NCBI GenBank assembly: GCA_963811165.1 | Contig: CAWEQH010000001.1 | Span: 416,001 to 480,000 of the forward strand | DNA: 64,000 nucleotides | From: an uncultured Nitrospiraceae bacterium | GTDB taxonomy: Bacteria > Nitrospirota > Thermodesulfovibrionia > Thermodesulfovibrionales > UBA6898 | Direction: 5' to 3' | In this document: positions 1,464 to 55,080 of the stretch, one piece after another | Layout of the letters: the number at the start of each line of letters is the position of its first letter | Numbering within the stretch: the stretch's first letter is position 1 | Made by a program: the position numbers and the translations under genes | The notes under the pieces: model-generated | Told to the model about the DNA's origin: nothing | The model's input: only the letters and a program-made list of their open reading frames with translations | The model's database searches: none

Positions 1464-3205
1464 GATCGCGGCCTTCTTTGTTACTGATAAGGGCCGGCTT
1501 CTTGCTGAGAGGATGAAGGAGCTTTATCCGGGGCTCGAGATAATAAAGTTTTCGGCAGGCGCCGCAAGAAAAAAGTGGGATGAATGCGGGAGCCTTATCT
1601 TCATCATGGCGGCGGGTATCGTGGTCCGGACAATCGGGCCTCTCATAAAGGATAAAAGGTCCGACCCGGCCGTTGTCGTGCTTGATGAAAACGGCGCGTA
1701 TGCGATAAGTCTCTTAAGCGGTCACCTGGGCGGCGCAAATGAGCGGTCAAGGGAGATCGCCGGATTTCCTTAACGGTGAAGCGGTCATTACCACGGCATC
1801 CGACGTAAACGGTCTGACGCCGATCGATCTTTGGGCGCAGGACAACGATCTCGTGATCGAGGACGGGAAGCTTCTTCCCCGCATCGGCACTCGTCTCATA
1901 AACACCGGAAGTCTGAATGTCTATACCGGCATCGAGATCGCCCTGCCCGGTGAGTTTGGGCGGGTGGCCGACCCCGCAGCTGCCGATTTGCTCATCACCC
2001 ATGCGAAATCGCTTTCATCTTGCCGGGGTCTCTATCTCAGACCGAAGGATCTCGTCATAGGTATCGGCTGTAACAGCGGGACTTCGGCCGCTGAGATCGA
2101 AGGCGCGGTCGAAAAGGTGTTCGATGAGAATAATTTGTCGCTCACGTCGGTCTTTGCGATCGCGACGATAGATCTGAAGGCCAAGGAGCCGGGGATCAGG
2201 GCATTTGCCGTAAAATATTCTTTCGGCATCCTGGCCTTCAGGCCTGAAGAACTGAATGGGGTAAACGGGGTAGCGAGGTCCGATGCGGCTTTCAGGGCCA
2301 CCGGGGCAAAGGCGGTGGCGGAGCCTGCCGCATTGCTTGCGACAGGCGCTAAGAGGCTTCTTGTCAGGAAACAGAAGATCGGCAACGTAACCGTGGCGGT
2401 AGCGGAAAGAAATAAAGGAGTCAAAGAAGTGGAGAAAGAGAAATCGAACGTGTTAGGAAAGATTTATGTTGTTGGCACCGGACCGGGAAATATAGAACAT
2501 ATCACCCCTTACGCTCATAAGGTAATCCGGCGATCGGATACCATCGTCGGCTACGGCACCTATACCGGCCTTATCAAGGAAATCATCAGTGACAAAGAGG
2601 TCTTCTCTACCGGGATGACCCAGGAGATCGACAGGTGCAGGAAAGCCGTCGAACTGGCCCTGGGCGGCCGGACGGTCTCCGTGATAAGCGGCGGAGATCC
2701 CGGAATATACGCTATGGCCGGGCTTGTTTTTGAACTTTTGAAAGAAAGGGAGGGAGACGGGCCTTTGCCCCCGGTCGAGGTTATCCCCGGCATTTCGGCG
2801 CTGAACGCCTGCGCAGCCAGGCTCGGCGCGCCTCTGATGCACGACTTCGCTTCAATCAGCCTTTCCGACAGGCTCACACCATGGGACCTGATAGAAAGAA
2901 GGCTCGATGCCGCCGCCATGTCGGATTTCGTGATCATCCTTTATAACCCCAAGAGTAAGGGCAGGGCAGGGCATATCACAAGGGCTCGGGATATCGTCAT
3001 GAAGTACCGGTCGGCCGATACCCCGGTCGGCATCGTCAAAGGTGCGATGAGGGAAGATGAAACGATTGTCCTGACGGACTTGGAAAAGATGCCCGGCCAT
3101 GAGATCGATATGCAGACGACGGTGATAATAGGAAATTCGAAGACCTTTCTCTGGAATGACCTGATGATTACGCCCCGTGGATATGAAAAGAAACTTGCAT
3201 CCTGA
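1447..3205 (+). CDS. cbiG-cbiH: CbiG (cobalt-precorrin-5A hydrolase)-CbiH/CobJ (C17-methyltransferase) fusion, split by a +1 frameshift at ~1765-1767
   Basis: ORF 1447-1773 has CbiG N-terminus (MAAGIVVR, DKRSDPAVVV, SLLSGHLGGAN); ORF 1739-3205 continues with VITTASD, GIGC, VAEPAA, then CbiH (VVGTGPG, ISGGDPGIYAMAG, GAPLMHDF, LYNPKS, MITPRGY). Removing one T from GGATTTCCTT joins the frames. Confidence 0.9.
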
Positions 3206-4511
3206 GAGCACCGTTTCGAGTAAAATTGCTTTTTTTTGGGACGAATCCTTTATCTGGGGACTGATGTCCTATAAGGCACTGCGCGCCAATGGTCTTTCCT
3301 TTGACCTTGTCCGCTGCGACGATATCAGAAGAGGGGCCCTTAAGAACTACTCCATGCTTTTTGTTCCCGGCGGATGGGCATCGAATAAACTGAGGGCGCT
3401 TGGAGATGACGGGGCCTCGGAGATACGAAGGTTCGTTGAGGCGGGCGGCTCCTACTTGGGCTTCTGCGGCGGCGCCGGTCTTGCTACCCTCGATGGAATA
3501 GGGCTTTTGCCGGTGAAGCGAAAACCGACAAGGGAGCGGGTGCCGAGTTTCAGCGGAAGGATCATGCTCAATCTTAAGGAACATCCGGTCTGGAAGGGCC
3601 TTTCGGCAACCGGGCATCGGCGGCAGGCCGCTCATTCATCCGATGTCTTTCAGGCCTGGTGGCCTTCCCAGCTTTTACTGGAAGAAAAATCCGTCAAAGT
3701 CCTTGCGACTTACGGCGAAGCGCTGCCCGACTCCTTCAGCTCCGACCTGAACGTCGGCGATACGGAAGCAAGCGGCAACTGGGATGAACTCGAAGAGGTG
3801 TATGGAATCAACCTCAATCCCAAGCGGCTGCGCGACGACCCCGCTGTGGTTGAGGGGGTATGCGGGAGGGGCCGGGTCATCCTGTCGCTCATCCACTTCG
3901 ATACCCCATCCGATGACAATGGTTCGATCGTTCTTAAGAACCTGTGGGAGTATCTCGCGGGCGAGAAAACAGGGCACCTTGAATGTCGATTGCGTTCTGC
4001 AGGCGTTATAAGCGATTCTGTCGCTTCAGCAGATGAAGCGGGCATAGAGGTTTCAGAACTCGAAGCGAAGGTAGCGGATTTGATCTGTCTGGGGATGAGG
4101 AATTTTCTCTGGTTCTGGAGGAACCCTATGCTTCTTCAGTGGCGCAGGGGAGTAAGGGGACTTGAATACTGCACGCTTTATATCATGATGAAAGAGATCT
4201 CGGAAATCATACGCCTCGAAAAATATCATCTTTTACGTGATGATGAGCGAAAGCAGCGGCTCAAGGAGGGTCTTTCAGCCCTGAGGTCACTCCTCATTCC
4301 ATTTATTGATGAATCGAAAAGGCTTCTCGTTTTGGAGAGGCTCGCTATGCAAAACGGGCATATTACCTACGACAGATGTGAAGATCCGGAGATCGGGAAG
4401 ATAAGGAGAGAGCTTTTTTCGAATTCAAAGAGCCACGGCGGATTATTCAAACAACTGATCGGGGAAATCGACAAAGTGCTGTTTATGGTGATGGACCGCA
4501 GCGATAGGTGA
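3177..4511 (+). CDS. BPL_N (biotin-protein-ligase N-terminal, class I glutamine amidotransferase-like) domain protein
   Basis: LFVPGG...IRRFVEAGGSYLGFCGGA motif with nucleophile-elbow Cys; GRVILSLIHFD; overlaps cbiH stop. Confidence 0.75.
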   Translation: MDMKRNLHPESTVSSKIAFFWDESFIWGLMSYKALRANGLSFDLVRCDDIRRGALKNYSMLFVPGGWASNKLRALGDDGASEIRRFVEAGGSYLGFCGGAGLATLDGIGLLPVKRKPTRERVPSFSGRIMLNLKEHPVWKGLSATGHRRQAAHSSDVFQAWWPSQLLLEEKSVKVLATYGEALPDSFSSDLNVGDTEASGNWDELEEVYGINLNPKRLRDDPAVVEGVCGRGRVILSLIHFDTPSDDNGSIVLKNLWEYLAGEKTGHLECRLRSAGVISDSVASADEAGIEVSELEAKVADLICLGMRNFLWFWRNPMLLQWRRGVRGLEYCTLYIMMKEISEIIRLEKYHLLRDDERKQRLKEGLSALRSLLIPFIDESKRLLVLERLAMQNGHITYDRCEDPEIGKIRRELFSNSKSHGGLFKQLIGEIDKVLFMVMDRSDR

Positions 4512-4635: not shown

Positions 4636-4845
4636 ATGGAGCATAAGAACAAGGCCAGCAGCGTTACCTTTATCTTGATTGCGGTGTGCATATTGGGAAG
4701 TGTTGCCGCAAGTTTCAGCCTTCAGGAGATTATTCCCCGGCTTAACAAATGGCAAATTGGCGGGTATGCAATTGTGGGCGGGATATTCATCGCGATGGTT
4801 GCCGTGATCGCAAATGAAATGCTGAAGTTCTTTCAGAACGAATAA
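4636..4845 (+). CDS. Small two-TM membrane protein (69 aa), paralogue of 5415-5625
   Basis: AAGGAGG RBS before ATG 4636; two hydrophobic segments; RLNKWQ..GYA.V.GIFIA.VA shared with the downstream copy. Confidence 0.8.
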   Translation: MEHKNKASSVTFILIAVCILGSVAASFSLQEIIPRLNKWQIGGYAIVGGIFIAMVAVIANEMLKFFQNE

Positions 4846-4930: not shown

Positions 4931-5347
4931 ATGTCGACGGCATCGCGGGTCATTATTATCGATTATTCAATGAAGTATTATGCGGACGTTGCAAGGGCGG
5001 CCATGCCGGCCGCGAGGAACGGCAAGTTTGTTCAGTTGAGACACGGTGACACGGAGTACCTTGTATTATCCCCCAAGGAATTCAGCCCTTACCACGCTGA
5101 CATCCTGGAGCGGTTTTGCCGGGAGAGGTCCATTGACGGGGCCTATCAGGAAGGGAAGAAGCGCTTCGACATTCGGGATGCCGAATGGGTCATCCGGGGC
5201 GGCGGCAAGTTTGAGATAGATGAGACGAAGAGATATATACGTTTCTATGACAACTCAATGGCCTACGGGAGATTCGAGGCCAGGGGTTTAAAGGGAAAGG
5301 TCCGTCGGAGCGATATACTGAAGGGTTATGAAGTGACGATCGAATAA
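4931..5347 (+). CDS. Janus/Ocnus (PHPT1, 14-kDa phosphohistidine phosphatase)-like protein
   Basis: GKFVQ, YHADI, GGGK, YDNSMAYG and GYEVT occur in the same order as PHPT1 FKYVL, YHADI, GGGR, YGYSMAYG and DYEVT (recalled sequence). Confidence 0.75.
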   Translation: MSTASRVIIIDYSMKYYADVARAAMPAARNGKFVQLRHGDTEYLVLSPKEFSPYHADILERFCRERSIDGAYQEGKKRFDIRDAEWVIRGGGKFEIDETKRYIRFYDNSMAYGRFEARGLKGKVRRSDILKGYEVTIE

Positions 5348-5414: not shown

Positions 5415-5625
5415 ATGGAGCAGAAGAAAAAGAGCGAACCTGACGATCGTTATAGTTGGCGCGGTCTGTATTATTATGGCAGTGGCAGGCGGGATACGCA
5501 TGCTTCATATGATCTCCCGTCTAAACGGATGGCAGGCCGCAGGATATGCGCTGGTTGAGGGGATATTCATCGCCCTTGTCGCTGCCATACTTGACCGGAT
5601 CCTTTCTTTTTTCTCCGGCGAGTAA
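5415..5625 (+). CDS. Small two-TM membrane protein, paralogue of 4636-4845, with a +1 frameshift in the A-run at 5427-5431 (absent from ORF track)
   Basis: AAGGAG RBS, ATG 5415; removing one A gives MEQKKRANLTIVIVGAVCIIMAVAGGIRMLHMISRLNGWQAAGYALVEGIFIALVAAILDRILSFFSGE*, 69 aa, gap-free alignment to the paralogue. Confidence 0.8.
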
Positions 5626-28000: not shown

Positions 28001-28140
28001 CTTGCCATCTCCTTAATAAACAGCCTCCTATCATCACAATATTCCGAAACAGTGAATAAGATGTGAAGATTAGCCGGTAAGGAAGGCCGGTATATGATAA
28101 AATTGATGCATTATCAGGGATGGTGAGGATTGGAACCCAA

Positions 28141-29484
28141 ATGGCCATAACAAAAAAAGTAGCAGAGAGAATAGAGCAAAAGAAGGGCGACTACCAGGAT
28201 TACAAGTTTAGCCAGATCGAAAACGACGCGCTCAAGACGTTTTTTGACCTTGCGCAGGAGTTCGGGAGTATAGACGACTTTTATACCCTTTGCGTAGCGG
28301 TCCCGAAAAGTTTTTTCGGCCTCGATGCCCGCCTCTATCTCTTTGATCCCAGGATCGAGGACACTACACTTGCGGCGACAACTGAAGAAAGCGAATACGA
28401 ACTGCACGATCCGGCCCCGGACCATATAAAGCCGTCAGAGATCCCGTACTTTACCGACAGGAAGAGCCTTGTTTTGCCTATCCGTGGGAAAAAACTTCTG
28501 ATCAGTCAACTGCCTTTCCATGTGGAGGGCGACATACTCGGGCTGCTTGAGGTCTATCCCGTCGAGAGCATGGATAACCACAGACAGCTTTTTTTCGAGA
28601 AGTACGCAAACCGTATAGGCTTCAGGCTGCACAATAAATTTCTCGTAGAGAAGAATATCGAGCACCTGAGGTTTATCCGTTCCCTTGTGGCCGATATCGA
28701 ACATAACATAATTGTGCCGAATATGGTCTATAAGCTGTTCCTCAGACGCCTCAGGGGCAAGATCATGAAAAACGTCGAAATCGAGGAATTCCTTATGTCA
28801 TGGTATGCCGAAGGGAGATGCGACAAGACATTGATGGAGAATACGCTGAGGGAACTGGCCGATGTAAATCAGGGACTGACGGGTGAGCTCGAAAACCTCG
28901 AAAAGCATTATAAGAATATGTCCCTTTTTATCGAGACCCTTTTCAGAAAGAGCCACTTTGACCAGGGACGTCTCACCCTAAGGACCAAGGCATGCAATAT
29001 GAAAAAGGACGTCGTCCGGCCCCAGCTTGAACGCTATGTCGAGCAGTTCGAGAAGGCCGGCATTTCTATAGACGACAGGATGAGCGGCATCCCGGATGAG
29101 GAGATTATCAATGTGGTGGACGTTGGTTTGATAGCGCAGGTGTACGCAAACCTTTTTTCGAATGCTCTCAAATATACCGGTGAAGTCGAGATACTCGGCA
29201 TTAAGAAAAAATATATCGCTTATGGCCACCAGATCGTTAAAGATTATTTCGGCCCCGGCAAAGACGGCGTGAAGTATAATATTTTCAGCTCCGGTCTGCA
29301 GATCGACCAGAAAGAGCGGGGGAAGCTCTTTGAAGAGGGCTACCGGTCGTCCAATACCGGCGGCGTACCAGGCACGGGCCACGGTCTGGCCTTTGTCAAA
29401 AACGTTATTGAATTGCACGGAGGGGTAGTTGGGTATGAGGCGGTAGATTACGGCAACAACTTCTTCTTTATCCTTCCAAAATAA
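28141..29484 (+). CDS. Cytoplasmic sensor histidine kinase (GAF-like + HATPase), orphan
   Basis: Putative H-box DIEHNI, N-box NLFSNALKY, F-box LFEEGYR, G2 GTGHGL; no TM segment. Confidence 0.85.
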   Translation: MAITKKVAERIEQKKGDYQDYKFSQIENDALKTFFDLAQEFGSIDDFYTLCVAVPKSFFGLDARLYLFDPRIEDTTLAATTEESEYELHDPAPDHIKPSEIPYFTDRKSLVLPIRGKKLLISQLPFHVEGDILGLLEVYPVESMDNHRQLFFEKYANRIGFRLHNKFLVEKNIEHLRFIRSLVADIEHNIIVPNMVYKLFLRRLRGKIMKNVEIEEFLMSWYAEGRCDKTLMENTLRELADVNQGLTGELENLEKHYKNMSLFIETLFRKSHFDQGRLTLRTKACNMKKDVVRPQLERYVEQFEKAGISIDDRMSGIPDEEIINVVDVGLIAQVYANLFSNALKYTGEVEILGIKKKYIAYGHQIVKDYFGPGKDGVKYNIFSSGLQIDQKERGKLFEEGYRSSNTGGVPGTGHGLAFVKNVIELHGGVVGYEAVDYGNNFFFILPK

Positions 29485-40383: not shown

Positions 40384-40941
40384 ATGGTGCGTATACTCCT
40401 CACCACAGCCCTTTTTCTCTCGGTCTTTATCCCCGGCCTGGCCGGAGGGCAGGAGATTGCCGGCCCTGAGGTGAGGCTCGCCAATAACGACGTCTACGTC
40501 AGCTTTTCCCTGGTCCCTGGCGCCAAACACATTGAGGAGATAAAGGAGGGGATAGACAAGGAACTGAAACTCTACGTTGACCTGTTCAGGGTCTGGAAGA
40601 TCTGGCCGGATGAGTTTGTGCTCGGTAAGTTTTATTCAAGAAGGATGAAGGTCAATCCTATCAAAAAGGAATACGTGGCAACGTCTTTCGACGGGAGCGT
40701 TATCATCGAAAGAAGATTCCGGTCTTTTGAGACTATGCTTGCCTGGACGTTGTCGGTCAAGGACCTGAAACTCACCAATACCCGTGAACTCGATCCCGGG
40801 GAATATTTTGTGAGGATCACGGCCGAATCGAAGATAAGGACCCTTCCGCCGATGATACGACAGTTTTTTGTCTTCATATCGGAAAATGAATTCAAGATCA
40901 AGAAAGACTCCGGTGTTTTTGTCATTGAGGGCGGCAGATGA
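40384..40941 (+). CDS. DUF4390-like periplasmic protein
   Basis: Signal peptide; usual position upstream of ntrY, ATGA overlap. Confidence 0.7.
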   Translation: MVRILLTTALFLSVFIPGLAGGQEIAGPEVRLANNDVYVSFSLVPGAKHIEEIKEGIDKELKLYVDLFRVWKIWPDEFVLGKFYSRRMKVNPIKKEYVATSFDGSVIIERRFRSFETMLAWTLSVKDLKLTNTRELDPGEYFVRITAESKIRTLPPMIRQFFVFISENEFKIKKDSGVFVIEGGR

Positions 40942-42974
40942 GGAGACTGCGTCTTGCGCTGCTCATCACCGTAGCGGCTCTTTTTATCCTGTCTGCCTTT
41001 GGCGTGGAGCTCCATTACATGAAGCTCGAAAAAGTCCCCTTTTTTACAAAAGTGATACTCTTTATTCTCCTGAATCTGAGCCTGATCGCCCTTCTCGTCC
41101 TGATGTTCTTTGTCGGAAAGATCCTTTTGAATGTCTATTTCGAGAGAAAAAACAGGGTGCTGGGATACAAATTCAAGACGAAGTTCGTGGTTGTACTCGT
41201 CGTTCTTACGATGATCCCCTCAGCCTTCCTCTTCATAGTGTCGAGCGGTATCGTCACTAATTATCTCGATCGGTGGTTTGACCCTCAGGTAAAGCAGCCC
41301 TTGGCCCTCTCCATAGAGATTGCGAAGTCTGCATATGAAATGCAGCGCCGCCAGGCACTCACATTCGCAGAGGCGATCGCTGCCGGAAAGGCCGTACCGG
41401 AGAACTATTCAGTGCGGCATCTTACTTCAATCCCGGAGGATGCCTCGGACACCATCAGGACAGGCTTTGATGGAAAACCGGATGTAGAGGTGATCACGGG
41501 CGAGCAGGGAGACACAGTCAGGGCTGTTGCGCCCGAATTTCGCGGCAGGAAGCAGACAGGGGTGGTAGTCGTAGAGTTCCTTATCGGCAGAGACATTAGC
41601 AGGAGTTCCGAAAAGATAAACGATATGTACAAGAATTACATGACGCTCGAGTCATGGAAGACCCCGATAAAATTGAATTATCTTTTGGTATTGAGCTTCT
41701 TTACCCTGATGACGATATTCATGGCGTTATGGGTGGGGCTCAGGATATCCCGGGGGATTACCGACCCCATCCAGATGCTTGCCCAGGCGACGGAGCGGGT
41801 GGCAAAGGGGGACCTCGAGACCAATATCGATATCCAAAGGGAGGATGAAATTGGGGTGCTAGTAAGGTCCTTTAACAATATGGTAAAAGAGTTGAAGGAG
41901 AGCAAGGAATCCCTCCAGCGCGCATGGGTCGAATCCGACAGGAGGAGGCTCATAATAGAGATCATCCTGGAAAACATTCATTCAGGGGTCATTTATCTAA
42001 ACGCACCGGGTGAAATCCTTGCGATAAACGGCGCGGCATGCAGGATACTGGGCGTATCGTCCGGGGAGATATTGGACAAGAATTATTCTGTTCTCCTTGC
42101 GATGCTCAGGTCTGAGGAACTGAAAGAGACGGTAAAAAACATAAGGGTCCAAGAGTTCAAAGGTCTCGAAAGAGAGATCAGGGTGACAGTGGGAGAACGC
42201 CGCGTCCTGTTGAGGATATTCATTACGACCCTGATGGACGGCATTAATTTCCTCGGGACCCTCGTTGTCTTCGACGACCTTACCGAGATCGTCAGGGCCC
42301 AAAAGGCGCTGGCCTGGCAGGAGGTCGCAAGGAGGATCGCCCACGAGATAAAAAATCCGCTGACTCCTATCAAGCTCTCGACGGATCATATGATAAAGAA
42401 GTGGCTAAACAAGGATGAAGACTTCGGACAGGTCTTCGAGCGTTCTACGAAAACCATCATTAAGGAAGTGGAGAGCCTCAAAAGGCTCGTCAATGAATTC
42501 TCGCGGTTCGGCAAGATGCCGGAGATCCATAAAACACCGGTGCTCATCTCGCGCATTATCGAAGGGGCCGCAAATCTCTACAGGGACTACAAGGAGCTGG
42601 AGATCACCCTGGGAAGGATCGAAAACGAGCCCGTTGTCGAGGCCGATGCGGAACAGTTCAAAAGGGTCATCATAAATATTTTGGACAACGCAATTCAGGC
42701 GATGCAAAACAGGGGCAGGATAGTCATTGATATAAAGCACGATATAGTCCTCAACAGGGTATTCATCGATATCGCTGATGACGGCCCCGGCATTCGTGAA
42801 GAAGACAAGGAGAAGCTCTTTCTCCCGTATTTCTCGACAAAGAGGGACGGGACCGGTCTCGGACTCGCGATCGCCTCCAGGGTTGTGGCCGAGCACAGGG
42901 GGTACATAAGGGTGAAAGACAATAAACCGACGGGAACAATTTTTACTATAGAACTTCCGGTGAAGGAGGGGTAG
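40938..42974 (+). CDS. ntrY: NtrY-like sensor histidine kinase (TM-HAMP-PAS-HisKA-HATPase)
   Basis: AWQEVARRIAHEIKNPLTPI, DEIGVL..SFN, GTGLGLAI. Confidence 0.9.
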   Translation: MRRLRLALLITVAALFILSAFGVELHYMKLEKVPFFTKVILFILLNLSLIALLVLMFFVGKILLNVYFERKNRVLGYKFKTKFVVVLVVLTMIPSAFLFIVSSGIVTNYLDRWFDPQVKQPLALSIEIAKSAYEMQRRQALTFAEAIAAGKAVPENYSVRHLTSIPEDASDTIRTGFDGKPDVEVITGEQGDTVRAVAPEFRGRKQTGVVVVEFLIGRDISRSSEKINDMYKNYMTLESWKTPIKLNYLLVLSFFTLMTIFMALWVGLRISRGITDPIQMLAQATERVAKGDLETNIDIQREDEIGVLVRSFNNMVKELKESKESLQRAWVESDRRRLIIEIILENIHSGVIYLNAPGEILAINGAACRILGVSSGEILDKNYSVLLAMLRSEELKETVKNIRVQEFKGLEREIRVTVGERRVLLRIFITTLMDGINFLGTLVVFDDLTEIVRAQKALAWQEVARRIAHEIKNPLTPIKLSTDHMIKKWLNKDEDFGQVFERSTKTIIKEVESLKRLVNEFSRFGKMPEIHKTPVLISRIIEGAANLYRDYKELEITLGRIENEPVVEADAEQFKRVIINILDNAIQAMQNRGRIVIDIKHDIVLNRVFIDIADDGPGIREEDKEKLFLPYFSTKRDGTGLGLAIASRVVAEHRGYIRVKDNKPTGTIFTIELPVKEG

Positions 42975-52143: not shown

Positions 52144-53507
52144 TATTTAATCCCGTATTTGTGGAGCCGGTGGCGGAAGGAGCGGAAGGAGAGGTTTAGA
52201 ATCTTGGCCGCCTCGGTCTTTACGCCGCGTGATTTTTCGAGGGCCTTCGTGAGATAGTCCTTCTCTATTTTTTCTAACAGTTTCTCGAGATCGAAGGTCC
52301 CATCGCCGATATCGGGCAGACATCCGAGGTTGTTTGCGGTTTGCAAGATTTCGTCAGGGAGGTCTTCAGGTACGATAACTTCCTTGTCGGAAAGCAGTAC
52401 GACCCTTTCCACGATATGTTCCAGTTCCCTTACATTGCCCTTCCAGTGATAGTTCATGAGCAACTGCATCGCCTCATGGGAGATCCTTCTTGGCTCTTTT
52501 GAAAACTTGAATAAGAAGTGCTCCAGAAGAAGGGGGATATCCGATGTCCGTTCTCTAAGAGGAGGGATAGTAATGGGGACAACATTAAGGCGGTAAAAAA
52601 GATCTTCTCTGAAACTGCCCGCAGCCACAGCCTCCGTGATATTTATGTTAGTTGCCGAGACTATTCTCACATCGACTTTTATATCGGTCGTCCCCCCGAC
52701 CCGCCTGAACGTTCCGTTTTCGAGGACGCGCAGGAGTTTTGATTGGAGCGACAACGGCATTTCTCCAATTTCGTCCAGAAAAAAAGTGCCCCCGTCGGCC
52801 ACTTCGAACAGACCTGATTTGCTGAATACCGCGCCGGTAAACGAACCCTTCATGTGGCCGAACATCTCGGACTCAAGAAGACCCTCGGGGAAAGTCGCGC
52901 AGTTGATCGTGACATAATTCTTGTTTTTTCTCGGGCTCAGGTTGTGAAGGGCCGAAGCGACCAATTCCTTACCGGTCCCGCTTTCGCCGCTTATGAGTAC
53001 GGCGGAATTGCTGTTTGCAACCCTGGGGATCAGCTTGAACAGTTCCTGCATTTTTGTGCTCTTGCCTATGATGTTCTCAAGTCCGAACGATGACCGGAAT
53101 TTTTCGCGCAGGAGGGATAGTTCTTCGCTGAGGTTCTTTTTTTCAAAGGCCTTTCTTACTATCAGCCTTATTTCATCGATCTTGAAGGGTTTGTGGATGT
53201 AATCATAGGCCCCTTTTTTCATGGCATCGATTGCCGATTCGATAGTGCCGAAGGCGGTAACCATTATCACCAGAGCTGAAGGGGAGATTTCTCTGGCCTC
53301 TCTTAAGACTTCAAACCCGTCGGCCTTGGGCATCTTGATATCCGTTATGACGAGGTCGAAGAGATTGTGCCTGATGTATTCGATCCCCTCCATCCCGTCC
53401 GAAGCTGCGGTAACTTCGTACGCCTCCTCTTCAAGAAGTATGCGGAGCACTTCTCTCATGCTCTTCTCATCTTCTATGATGAGGATTCTTCCCTTAATAT
53501 TCTCCAT
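52143..53507 (-). CDS. pilR: sigma54-dependent response regulator PilR
   Basis: Receiver, GESGTGKE, GSFTGA, C-terminal SFRSFRHRL; follows pilS. Confidence 0.9.
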   Translation of the reverse strand: MENIKGRILIIEDEKSMREVLRILLEEEAYEVTAASDGMEGIEYIRHNLFDLVITDIKMPKADGFEVLREAREISPSALVIMVTAFGTIESAIDAMKKGAYDYIHKPFKIDEIRLIVRKAFEKKNLSEELSLLREKFRSSFGLENIIGKSTKMQELFKLIPRVANSNSAVLISGESGTGKELVASALHNLSPRKNKNYVTINCATFPEGLLESEMFGHMKGSFTGAVFSKSGLFEVADGGTFFLDEIGEMPLSLQSKLLRVLENGTFRRVGGTTDIKVDVRIVSATNINITEAVAAGSFREDLFYRLNVVPITIPPLRERTSDIPLLLEHFLFKFSKEPRRISHEAMQLLMNYHWKGNVRELEHIVERVVLLSDKEVIVPEDLPDEILQTANNLGCLPDIGDGTFDLEKLLEKIEKDYLTKALEKSRGVKTEAAKILNLSFRSFRHRLHKYGIK

Positions 53508-55080
53508 CTTCCCTGTGTAGTATAATCTCAAAAGTCGTTTTTATTCCAGGAATGCTCTTTGCGGTGAGCCTTCCGCTATGTTCCTCTATTATCCTGTATG
53601 CGATCGACAGCCCAAGTCCTGTCCCCTCATCCTTTGTGGTGAAAAAGGGGTAAAAAATCTTTTCTATCCGCGACGGCTGGATTCCTGGCCCGGTGTCCGC
53701 AAAGGTTATGGTGATCAGGCCCCTCTCTTTTTTTGTCGAGACGGTCAGCTCGCCCCCCTCTTTCATGGATTCCACCGCATTTATTCCCAGGTTCCAAAAT
53801 ACCTGCCTGATCTTTTGCGGGTCTACCTTCGCCATGAGAGGTCCTTCAAATCCCTTGTTGATCGATATATTGCCTTTATTCTGCTCCGCGTTTTTGAGAA
53901 GGGACAGGGTTTCATCCAAAAGGAGGTGCAGATCTGCCTTCCTTATTTCTAGGGGCCTCGAACTTGAATAGGTCAGAAAGTCCGTGATGATGTCGTTAAG
54001 CCGCTCCATCTCCTTTAAGGCAATGCCCATCAGTTTTTCTTTGTGTTTCTGCGATATCTTTTCGTCACTGAGCATCTCTATAGAGCCTCTCATCGATGCG
54101 AGGGGGTTTCTGATTTCGTGGGCAATGTTTGCGGACAATTCGCCTATCGCAGCCCATTTTTCTTTTTGTTTGATCTCGGCTTCAAGCGACTTAAATAAAG
54201 TCAAGTCCTGAAAGATGCCGATAAATCCCGTCTCCTGCCCGCTGGCATCCCTTAGGATCGATACCGTGAGCCCTATGATCTTGGGCCCCTTGCCGGTCTC
54301 AAGGGTAACTTCGCGGCGTCCTTCTTTGAGAGGAAAAGAGAGAAAGGGAAGTGCGGTTTCGATCCCCTTGCTGGTCGCGAGTTCCTTTTTTATTCCGGTG
54401 ATCTCCTCGGCTGTCCTGTTGAAGATCAGCACGTTGCCGTATCTGTCTGTGGTGAACAATCCGCTCGGGAGACTCTCTATGACTTTCATATTGAACAGCT
54501 CAAGATCCTTCAGATGGGTGTCTTTTTCCTCGAGCTTCTGAGCGGTCTTTTCGAGTCTGGAAGAAAGGTTGCCGCTTAGGTAGGCGGTGAGATATAGAGA
54601 GAGGATATGAATAAAGATATTGTAGAGAAAGAGCCTTTCGGAGATGACTGAATGAGGGATATTCAGTATGCCGTAATACTGCAGGTCGAGAAGCGTCCCA
54701 TAAAGGATACTGCTCAAACTTGCTATGACAAAACCGGCTTTTTTGTTAAGAACAATGCTTGATGACAAGACGGTGAGAATCAGAGTAAAGGAGAACCAGC
54801 TCTCAACTCCGCCGGTTATGTAAATCAAGCTGATTCCGGCGATCACGTCGAAGATCAGCTGGATATAAGTGAATAGGAATAGGCCCTTAATTTTGGTAAT
54901 GAGGAGGGCATAGATTATGGTGAGCAGATAAAGCGAGATAATGAGATACGAGATTGCCCTGGGTTGAGCGTAAAAATACTCGATCCTGAAGAGGAAAGAT
55001 GAACCCAGCAAGACCGTGACGAATAAGGCCCTGAGGCTTATCAGGGCCTTCAATCTTGCCGTCAGGACATTGTCGGCCAT
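53494..55080 (-). CDS. pilS: Sensor histidine kinase PilS
   Basis: Multi-TM N-terminus with ITGG..S.F, PAS, AHEIRNPL; position after pilC. Confidence 0.9.
   Translation of the reverse strand: MADNVLTARLKALISLRALFVTVLLGSSFLFRIEYFYAQPRAISYLIISLYLLTIIYALLITKIKGLFLFTYIQLIFDVIAGISLIYITGGVESWFSFTLILTVLSSSIVLNKKAGFVIASLSSILYGTLLDLQYYGILNIPHSVISERLFLYNIFIHILSLYLTAYLSGNLSSRLEKTAQKLEEKDTHLKDLELFNMKVIESLPSGLFTTDRYGNVLIFNRTAEEITGIKKELATSKGIETALPFLSFPLKEGRREVTLETGKGPKIIGLTVSILRDASGQETGFIGIFQDLTLFKSLEAEIKQKEKWAAIGELSANIAHEIRNPLASMRGSIEMLSDEKISQKHKEKLMGIALKEMERLNDIITDFLTYSSSRPLEIRKADLHLLLDETLSLLKNAEQNKGNISINKGFEGPLMAKVDPQKIRQVFWNLGINAVESMKEGGELTVSTKKERGLITITFADTGPGIQPSRIEKIFYPFFTTKDEGTGLGLSIAYRIIEEHSGRLTAKSIPGIKTTFEIILHREDGEY

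Follow-up and report, generated by a model that had tools for sequence, protein, structure and literature searches.

The gene and its surroundings

In the window (the whole stretch of DNA that was analysed, 64,000 nucleotides), an intact ORF of 138 codons lies on the forward strand at 4931..5347 and encodes a PHPT1/Janus-Ocnus-family protein of 138 aa (16.1 kDa, calculated pI 9.3). The gene is flanked by a cobalamin-synthesis cluster and a BPL_N-domain gene upstream and by hrpB downstream. The last gene of the cobalamin-synthesis cluster (3177-4511, +) codes for a 444-aa protein that matches BPL_N (biotin-protein ligase N-terminal, glutamine amidotransferase-like) and carries no NCBIfam name. 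On either side of the PHPT1-like gene there is one member of a pair of paralogues: an upstream gene for a 69-aa hydrophobic protein that matches no Pfam family above cut-off (4636..4845, +), and a downstream copy that is 46% identical to it (5415..5625, +, with its ATG at 5415). The downstream copy has a frameshift close to an A-rich stretch that follows its ATG; because the ATG and the body of the gene are in different frames, we regard it as a pseudogene or an assembly error. The same sandwich of paralogous 69-aa genes around the PHPT1-like gene was also seen in seven other loci (L013, L074, L118, L119, L120, L122 and L150). In the host order, however, the 69-aa family was present in 12/151 genomes and the PHPT1-like gene in 42/151, and both occurred together in 4/151, so that 8 of the 12 genomes with the 69-aa family were without the enzyme. 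This co-occurrence rules out the 69-aa membrane family as an obligate partner. A promoter scan stayed at chance level (1 found versus 1.5 expected).

The gene is under purifying selection (dN/dS 0.11-0.27 against six close relatives), and its GC content (52%) is close to that of the genome (51%). The nearest named relatives of the 138-aa protein, at 76% and 71% identity, belong to Thermodesulfovibrionales-type Nitrospirota genomes, and the protein was nested among relatives of this kind in a quick tree of 103 rows, which excluded five partial or duplicate loci, was built without eukaryotic sequence and is uninformative on the direction of transfer.

Family membership, fold and active site

Human PHPT1 is the 14-kDa phosphohistidine phosphatase (EC 3.9.1.3; PDB 2HW4, 2NMM and 2AI6), and its kin include C. 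elegans PHIP-1 and Drosophila Ocnus (Pfam PF05005). The first-pass annotation had taken the 138-aa protein for a probable bacterial homologue of PHPT1 from shared motifs, and profile, fold and conservation tests all agree with this. The Pfam Ocnus profile, the first check that it had suggested, scored 27.9 bits (cut-off 23; E 2.7e-6), with no other family matching the protein; on the host genome PF05005 gave 26 bits, and 0/14 control genomes had a match. Among 129 diverse homologues (the query and 128 of the 150 matches listed, with fragments and odd lengths dropped; 28% mean column identity), 112 matched Ocnus at E <= 0.01. A single-sequence phmmer search of the PDB with the 138-aa protein missed PHPT1 and returned chance hits only. 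With a profile of 84 close homologues (84 of the 120 matches listed), three human PHPT1 sequences topped the PDB search (E 1.5e-4); PHPT1 was found at E 4.4e-7 with the profile of the 129 diverse homologues and at E 1.4e-8 with a profile of 10 hand-picked rows, whereas a profile limited to the N-terminal 40 residues did not find it in the PDB.

The comparison of structures, also suggested in the annotation, gave the same answer. The AlphaFold model of the 138-aa protein had a pLDDT of 94 and a pTM of 0.89, and five human PHPT1 chains were its only Foldseek matches at E <= 0.001 (E 3.7e-7). When the model was compared by VIA-align to 48,161 representative chains, 2NMM alone reached Z >= 5, with Z 11.1 and rmsd 3.7 over 106 aligned residues (the next chain had 3.5), and pairwise structural alignment on 2NMM_C gave Z 11.9 and rmsd 2.4 over 100 residues. 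Thus the predicted fold, together with the profile searches, confirms that the 138-aa protein belongs to the Janus/Ocnus (PHPT1) family. The likeness to human PHPT1 extends over the whole chain of a single small domain (Z 9.8-11.9, 24-25% identity in structural alignment), and the YHA, GGG[RK] and SMAYG motifs are in register.

All five motifs were found where they had been placed (GKFVQ 31-35, YHADI 54-58, GGGK 90-93, YDNSMAYG 106-113 and GYEVT 132-136). Alignments to PDB 2AI6 bore out the human counterparts that the annotation had named for them, namely EYHADI 51-56, GGGR 75-78, YGYSMAYG 91-98 and DYEV; FKYVL is likewise present in 2AI6 (VFKYVL 19-24), in an alignment piece that is not significant alone. 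The PHPT1 pocket is described as including K21, H53, S94 and A96 (PMC12915710, Fig. 1 legend) and, in addition, Ala54 and Arg78 (PMC4817053). Y54-H55-A56 (5090..5098, +) corresponds to Tyr52-His53-Ala54 by alignment to human residues 51-56, and H55, the putative general base, stands at the start of a helix (55-65). GGGK 90-93 (5198..5209, +) corresponds in the profile alignments to human GGGR 75-78, with conserved glycines and a variable K/R position. The phosphate-binding loop S109-M-A111-Y-G113 (5255..5269, +) corresponds to Ser94-Met95-Ala96-Tyr97-Gly98. K32 (5024..5026, +), on strand 28-38 of the model, would be the counterpart of Lys21, the phosphate or substrate anchor. In the profile alignments K32 falls on Lys21 within a weakly placed piece (human 19-28) that scores -3.4 bits and is not significant, so that we infer the pairing; the structural aligners print aligned ranges without residue pairs. 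Thus the counterparts of human His53, Ala54, Arg78 (as Lys), Ser94, Met95, Ala96 and probably Lys21 are kept.

Only three columns were invariant in the 129 diverse homologues, H55, S109 and G113 (129/129 each), while K32, F33, the GGG and Y112 were conserved in at least 90% (K32 and Y112 in 125 each). A56 was kept in 109/129 and A111 in 108/129. The catalytic His was also present in all 184 of the 185 locus-derived copies that span the position. K93 aligns to Arg78 and retains a basic residue there, a conservative change; K or R occupied this position in 84/84 close homologues and in 43/129 diverse ones, and this variation across the family counts against strict equivalence. Profile, fold and conservation together support the retention of the PHPT1 catalytic pocket in the 138-aa protein.

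The bacterial protein also differs from human PHPT1, beyond its host. An extra helix precedes the Lys strand, the catalytic helix is followed by a 12-residue hairpin, and the spacing between K32 and H55 is nine residues shorter than that between Lys21 and His53. Since no His follows H55 in the 138-aa protein, there is no counterpart of PHPT1 His102. According to DSSP on the model and alignment, the helix-bearing segment (residues ~13-27, helix 13-20; 4967..5011, +) lies between the first two strands; it is absent from the phage proteins and would be longer than the matching human turn, judging on the human side from the aligned ranges. The beta-hairpin insertion, placed in the same way, covers residues ~68-81 (5132..5173, +). 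Both elements lie near the pocket and may shape substrate access or specificity, and the segment ~13-27 is a possible specificity element.

Distribution and gene order in bacteria and phages

Homologue searches yielded 458 family proteins among 469 candidates, 636 among 1073 and, in a further search, 280 clusters at 50% identity. The gene was present in 54/301 Nitrospirota genomes (two of them weak partial matches), in 37/229 near-complete ones and in 67/151 Zixibacteria genomes (one weak). In the class of Thiohalomonadaceae, which we take to be Gammaproteobacteria, it was found in 7/301 genomes. It is nearly always single-copy and is patchy within genera; a 98%-complete genome from the host's own genus gave no match, and the gene is therefore dispensable. 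One record titled Betaproteobacteria (L037, genome G305) had hit coordinates and a score identical to those of a Nitrospirota genome (G164), and its protein nests among Nitrospirota, so it is probably a mislabelled bin.

The family is thus broader than a bacterial oddity and spans several phyla as well as phages. The ESM Atlas, used for leads only, contained bacterial Ocnus clusters and also clusters with Uroviricota as the commonest taxon. Foldseek on viral models matched a 108-aa protein of Tenacibaculum phage pT24 (prob 0.95, E 0.09), and in the pT24 genome one 108-aa ORF, BPT24_299, was picked both by the family profile (E 3.3e-5) and by Pfam Ocnus (E 0.014, below cut-off); we equate it with the Foldseek match by length only. 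Its relatives are found in Chryseobacterium phages MA9V-1 and MA9V-2, which brings the jumbo phages with short family members to three. In the two phage proteins that were aligned (21% identity), the conserved positions are still occupied by K, F, H, G, S and G. The phage proteins retain the Lys, His and Ser and lack both bacterial insertions. BPT24_299 (L200:1438-1764, -) is an unannotated minimal PHPT1-like gene of a jumbo phage, and in phage MA9V-2 the unannotated MA9V2_156 (L233:2995-3369, +) is two genes past an NAD-dependent DNA ligase. None of 346 pattern matches in viral contigs was confirmed as a family member, PHROGs gave no meaningful family for the protein and plasmids no match to it; the tblastn matches to genes of T4-like phages (E 0.4-8) were taken as chance.

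The surroundings of the homologues vary from lineage to lineage. At 24 Nitrospirota loci mltG was nearby, usually convergent, and at 22 of these an OppC-like permease (named from translations) was upstream. A search for fusions, in which 8000 long candidates were scored, returned a single match, an OppC-Ocnus join; in a comparable join, in L036, the OppC sequence breaks off midway, and we therefore read it as an artefact. In Zixibacteria the order MFS transporter, PHP hydrolase, PHPT1-like gene and nuoA was found at 9/23 loci and at 10/12 further loci. The MFS-PHP pair was, however, also kept in 11/20 Zixibacteria genomes without the PHPT1-like gene, four of which run straight into nuoA; the gene is therefore an optional passenger there, and the block is ruled out as an obligate partner. 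The pair, an MFS transporter and a CehA/McbA-like PHP metallohydrolase, is conserved before the nuo operon in many Zixibacteria (for example L206:3468-5826 and L222-L232). A second Zixibacteria group had an EamA transporter nearby (7 loci). At three Thiohalomonadaceae loci a TIGR01458 HAD gene was one or two genes downstream (L075:6643-7731, L077:7024-7809 and L078:4207-4989; 205-206 bits, cut-off 176), and the best PDB match of this HAD was human LHPP (E 4.6e-46). Relatives of two mammalian pHis phosphatases, PHPT1 and LHPP, are thus adjacent in three genomes of this family. The linkage is confined to the one clade and was absent at five other gammaproteobacterial loci. No MFS, PHP, EamA or LHPP-type neighbours were found for the host genome. 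That neither a conserved partner nor a true fusion was found fits a generalist.

Proposed function and alternatives

As the 138-aa protein has the same fold and catalytic residues as PHPT1, it probably strips phosphate from N-linked sites such as phosphohistidine, and we consider it likely that it would hydrolyse pHis in vitro at all. With a confidence somewhat better than even, we propose that it is a stand-alone cytoplasmic protein P-N phosphatase of the PHPT1 family, broad in specificity and working like the animal enzyme. Animal PHPT1 is described as acting without a phospho-enzyme and with a His as general base (PMC11277029), and as active on pHis peptides, on bacterial CheA and on pLys (PMC11277029, PMC9724660). 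By analogy with human PHPT1, the S109 hydroxyl together with the backbone NH groups of H55, A56 and A111 would bind the phosphoryl group, K32 and, here, K93 would neutralise charge, and H55 would serve as general base on a water molecule, giving direct P-N hydrolysis with no phospho-enzyme. In the cell the protein might act as an accessory, broad eraser of protein N-phosphorylation at any exposed site, pHis first and perhaps pLys, with no dedicated partnership with one two-component system. The substrates of human PHPT1, such as G-beta, have no bacterial equivalent. Because HPr was not found in the host, we would look for substrates among Hpt/CheA-type and sensor-kinase histidines and metabolic phospho-enzymes. 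Even in animals the family is not strictly pHis-specific, as pLys (PMC11277029) and, for fly Ocnus, pTyr (PMC13602238) are reported substrates.

Two other kinds of enzyme share the class of reaction proposed here. SixA of E. coli (histidine phosphatase superfamily, TIGR00249) is likewise a small stand-alone protein, but it belongs to another family with another mechanism, in which the enzyme's own His accepts the phosphoryl group; the target of SixA is given as the PTS carrier NPr (PMC7948535). That the two are unrelated, as the annotation had stated, was borne out: the 138-aa protein had no His_Phos_1 or TIGR00249 match (Pfam E <= 1, NCBIfam E <= 0.001), and the PF00300 matches of the genome are elsewhere. 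LHPP/HDHD2-type enzymes (TIGR01458) have a HAD fold with an Asp nucleophile. They share P-N hydrolase chemistry (LHPP) and have bacterial members, but they are unrelated to the 138-aa protein in sequence. The 95%-complete host genome contains 5 Hpt domains, and SixA, HPr, a McsB-type kinase (PF00217) and an LHPP-type TIGR01458 HAD were not found in it. SixA scored above cut-off in 71/301 genomes, and its co-occurrence with the PHPT1-like gene was at chance level (9/20 versus 7.4 expected; 10/30 versus 10.8 expected). Since the presence of SixA is thus independent of the PHPT1-like gene, the gene does not look like a SixA replacement, and we rejected that pattern.

The few tight neighbours of the homologues (PHP hydrolase, MFS and EamA transporters, LHPP-type HAD) fit small-molecule metabolism at least as well as protein dephosphorylation. 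The protein could accordingly be a small-molecule phosphoamidase or phosphatase with the same chemistry, whose substrate in salvage or damage clean-up would be a metabolite, such as a free phosphoamino acid (phosphohistidine or phospholysine), phosphoramidate or a phosphate ester; we think this unlikely. The PHP-family metallohydrolase that precedes the gene at 9/23 Zixibacteria loci, with the MFS-PHP pair at 10/12 further ones, the EamA transporter at 7 loci of another group and the HAD downstream at three Thiohalomonadaceae loci all point this way, and the pocket could be closed by the added helix and hairpin. On the other side, 11 of the 20 Zixibacteria genomes that lack the gene retain the MFS-PHP pair, four of them with nuoA directly after it, the LHPP link is limited to one clade and is absent from five other gammaproteobacterial loci, and no such neighbours were found for the window's own genome.

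A broad protein phosphatase also has to be weighed against a dedicated two-component regulator that dephosphorylates particular histidine kinases or Hpt domains, a role suggested by the first-pass annotation from three kinases in the window. The three kinase-like genes are indeed there, at 28120-29484 (+), 40938-42974 and 53494-55080, and the nearest is 22.8 kb from the PHPT1-like gene. The first encodes a 454-aa protein that matches HATPase_c only by Pfam; it has no Pfam HisKA match, no receiver gene was found alongside and it may be an atypical or orphan kinase. The host genome (3.66 Mb) has ~70 kinase-like genes by a profile built for the analysis, so that three in 64 kb is a chance-level number (P = 0.13). 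Sixty-two of the 195 gene-carrying loci cover 3 kb on both sides. A kinase lay within 3 kb at 3/62 of them, compared to 15% of random host-genome positions, and a kinase or receiver at 6/62, compared to 22%; the loci lack independence, and a single genome served as the control. At 20 further loci there was no kinase near the gene (0/20). Kinases are therefore no commoner near the homologues than elsewhere, and neither conserved proximity nor a fusion tied the gene to a kinase, Hpt or receiver gene, a result with which action in trans would be compatible. The survey of taxonomy and synteny that had been suggested thus extended the family to several phyla and phages but gave no kinase linkage, and of the annotation as a whole the homology and the retained catalytic pocket stand on profile, fold and conservation, whereas the histidine-kinase link has no genomic support.

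The dedicated role does draw on several observations: animal PHPT1 and PHIP-1 are reported to dephosphorylate bacterial CheA in vitro (PMC11277029, PMC9724660), the host is rich in kinases and Hpt domains while HPr and SixA were not found there, and genes of one GGDEF-domain family are repeatedly found close to homologues (9 loci). We nevertheless consider it distinctly unlikely, given the distance of the window kinases (at least 22.8 kb) at chance density and the counts around the homologues. The lack of a signalling-domain fusion among the 8000 long candidates scored is weak evidence in the same direction, and SixA itself, first described as an Hpt phosphatase, was later described as having no in vivo effect on ArcB/ArcA (PMC6282199).

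Less probable still is a protein that has the PHPT1 fold and performs no P-N hydrolysis in vivo, such as an adaptor binding phosphate or a phospho-ligand, or an O-phosphatase (e.g. for pTyr). The reported pTyr activity of Drosophila Ocnus (PMC13602238) and the unconserved Arg78 position family-wide would suit it, but the catalytic His, in 129/129 homologues and in all 184 of 185 copies covering the position, is conserved as expected for catalysis. A chance motif match, a spurious ORF or eukaryotic contamination, for which only the failure of the single-sequence PDB search speaks, is refuted, with a negligible residual probability, by the hundreds of bacterial homologues (458/469 candidates), the Pfam score, the unique fold match, the Thermodesulfovibrionales-type closest relatives in the tree, the purifying selection and the genome-like GC (52% versus 51%).

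We therefore return to the broad P-N phosphatase of the PHPT1 family. As a bacterial variant of a known enzyme family the protein is real, and the function proposed for it is plausible. A wider and tentative proposal, which we hold to be rather doubtful, is that the PHPT1 fold represents an old enzyme family of prokaryotes and phages and not an animal invention; its bacterial branch would then be a second, mechanistically distinct class of bacterial protein pHis phosphatase that drains sensor kinases and Hpt domains in kinase-rich bacteria, and in infected cells the minimal jumbo-phage version could reset the histidine phosphorylation of the host. A 2018 study named SixA as the sole bacterial phosphohistidine phosphatase reported (PMC6282199), and a 2020 paper counted just four enzymes of this kind for which in vivo targets had been proposed, with PHPT1 among them as a mammalian one (PMC7948535). 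No description of bacterial or phage PHPT1 homologues was found in the open-access literature; prokaryotic members may be mentioned in subscription papers or supplements. The finding is limited in that many copies already carry an Ocnus label in databases (PF05005 as a precomputed annotation, and "Janus/Ocnus family" among the JGI names) and that the named hosts are metagenome-assembled genomes. A 16-kDa bacterial PHPT1-type protein with an intact pocket nevertheless makes bacterial pHis erasure testable with one expression construct, its homologues are natural sequence variants for studies of PHPT1 specificity and the bacterial branch bears on the origin of eukaryotic PHPT1.

Finally, at two gammaproteobacterial loci (L110:693-1064 and L111:2067-2789) the PHPT1-like gene adjoins a member of an unannotated family of ~115-120 aa, which is duplicated in L111, and at both loci a nearby gene resembles purC by translation.
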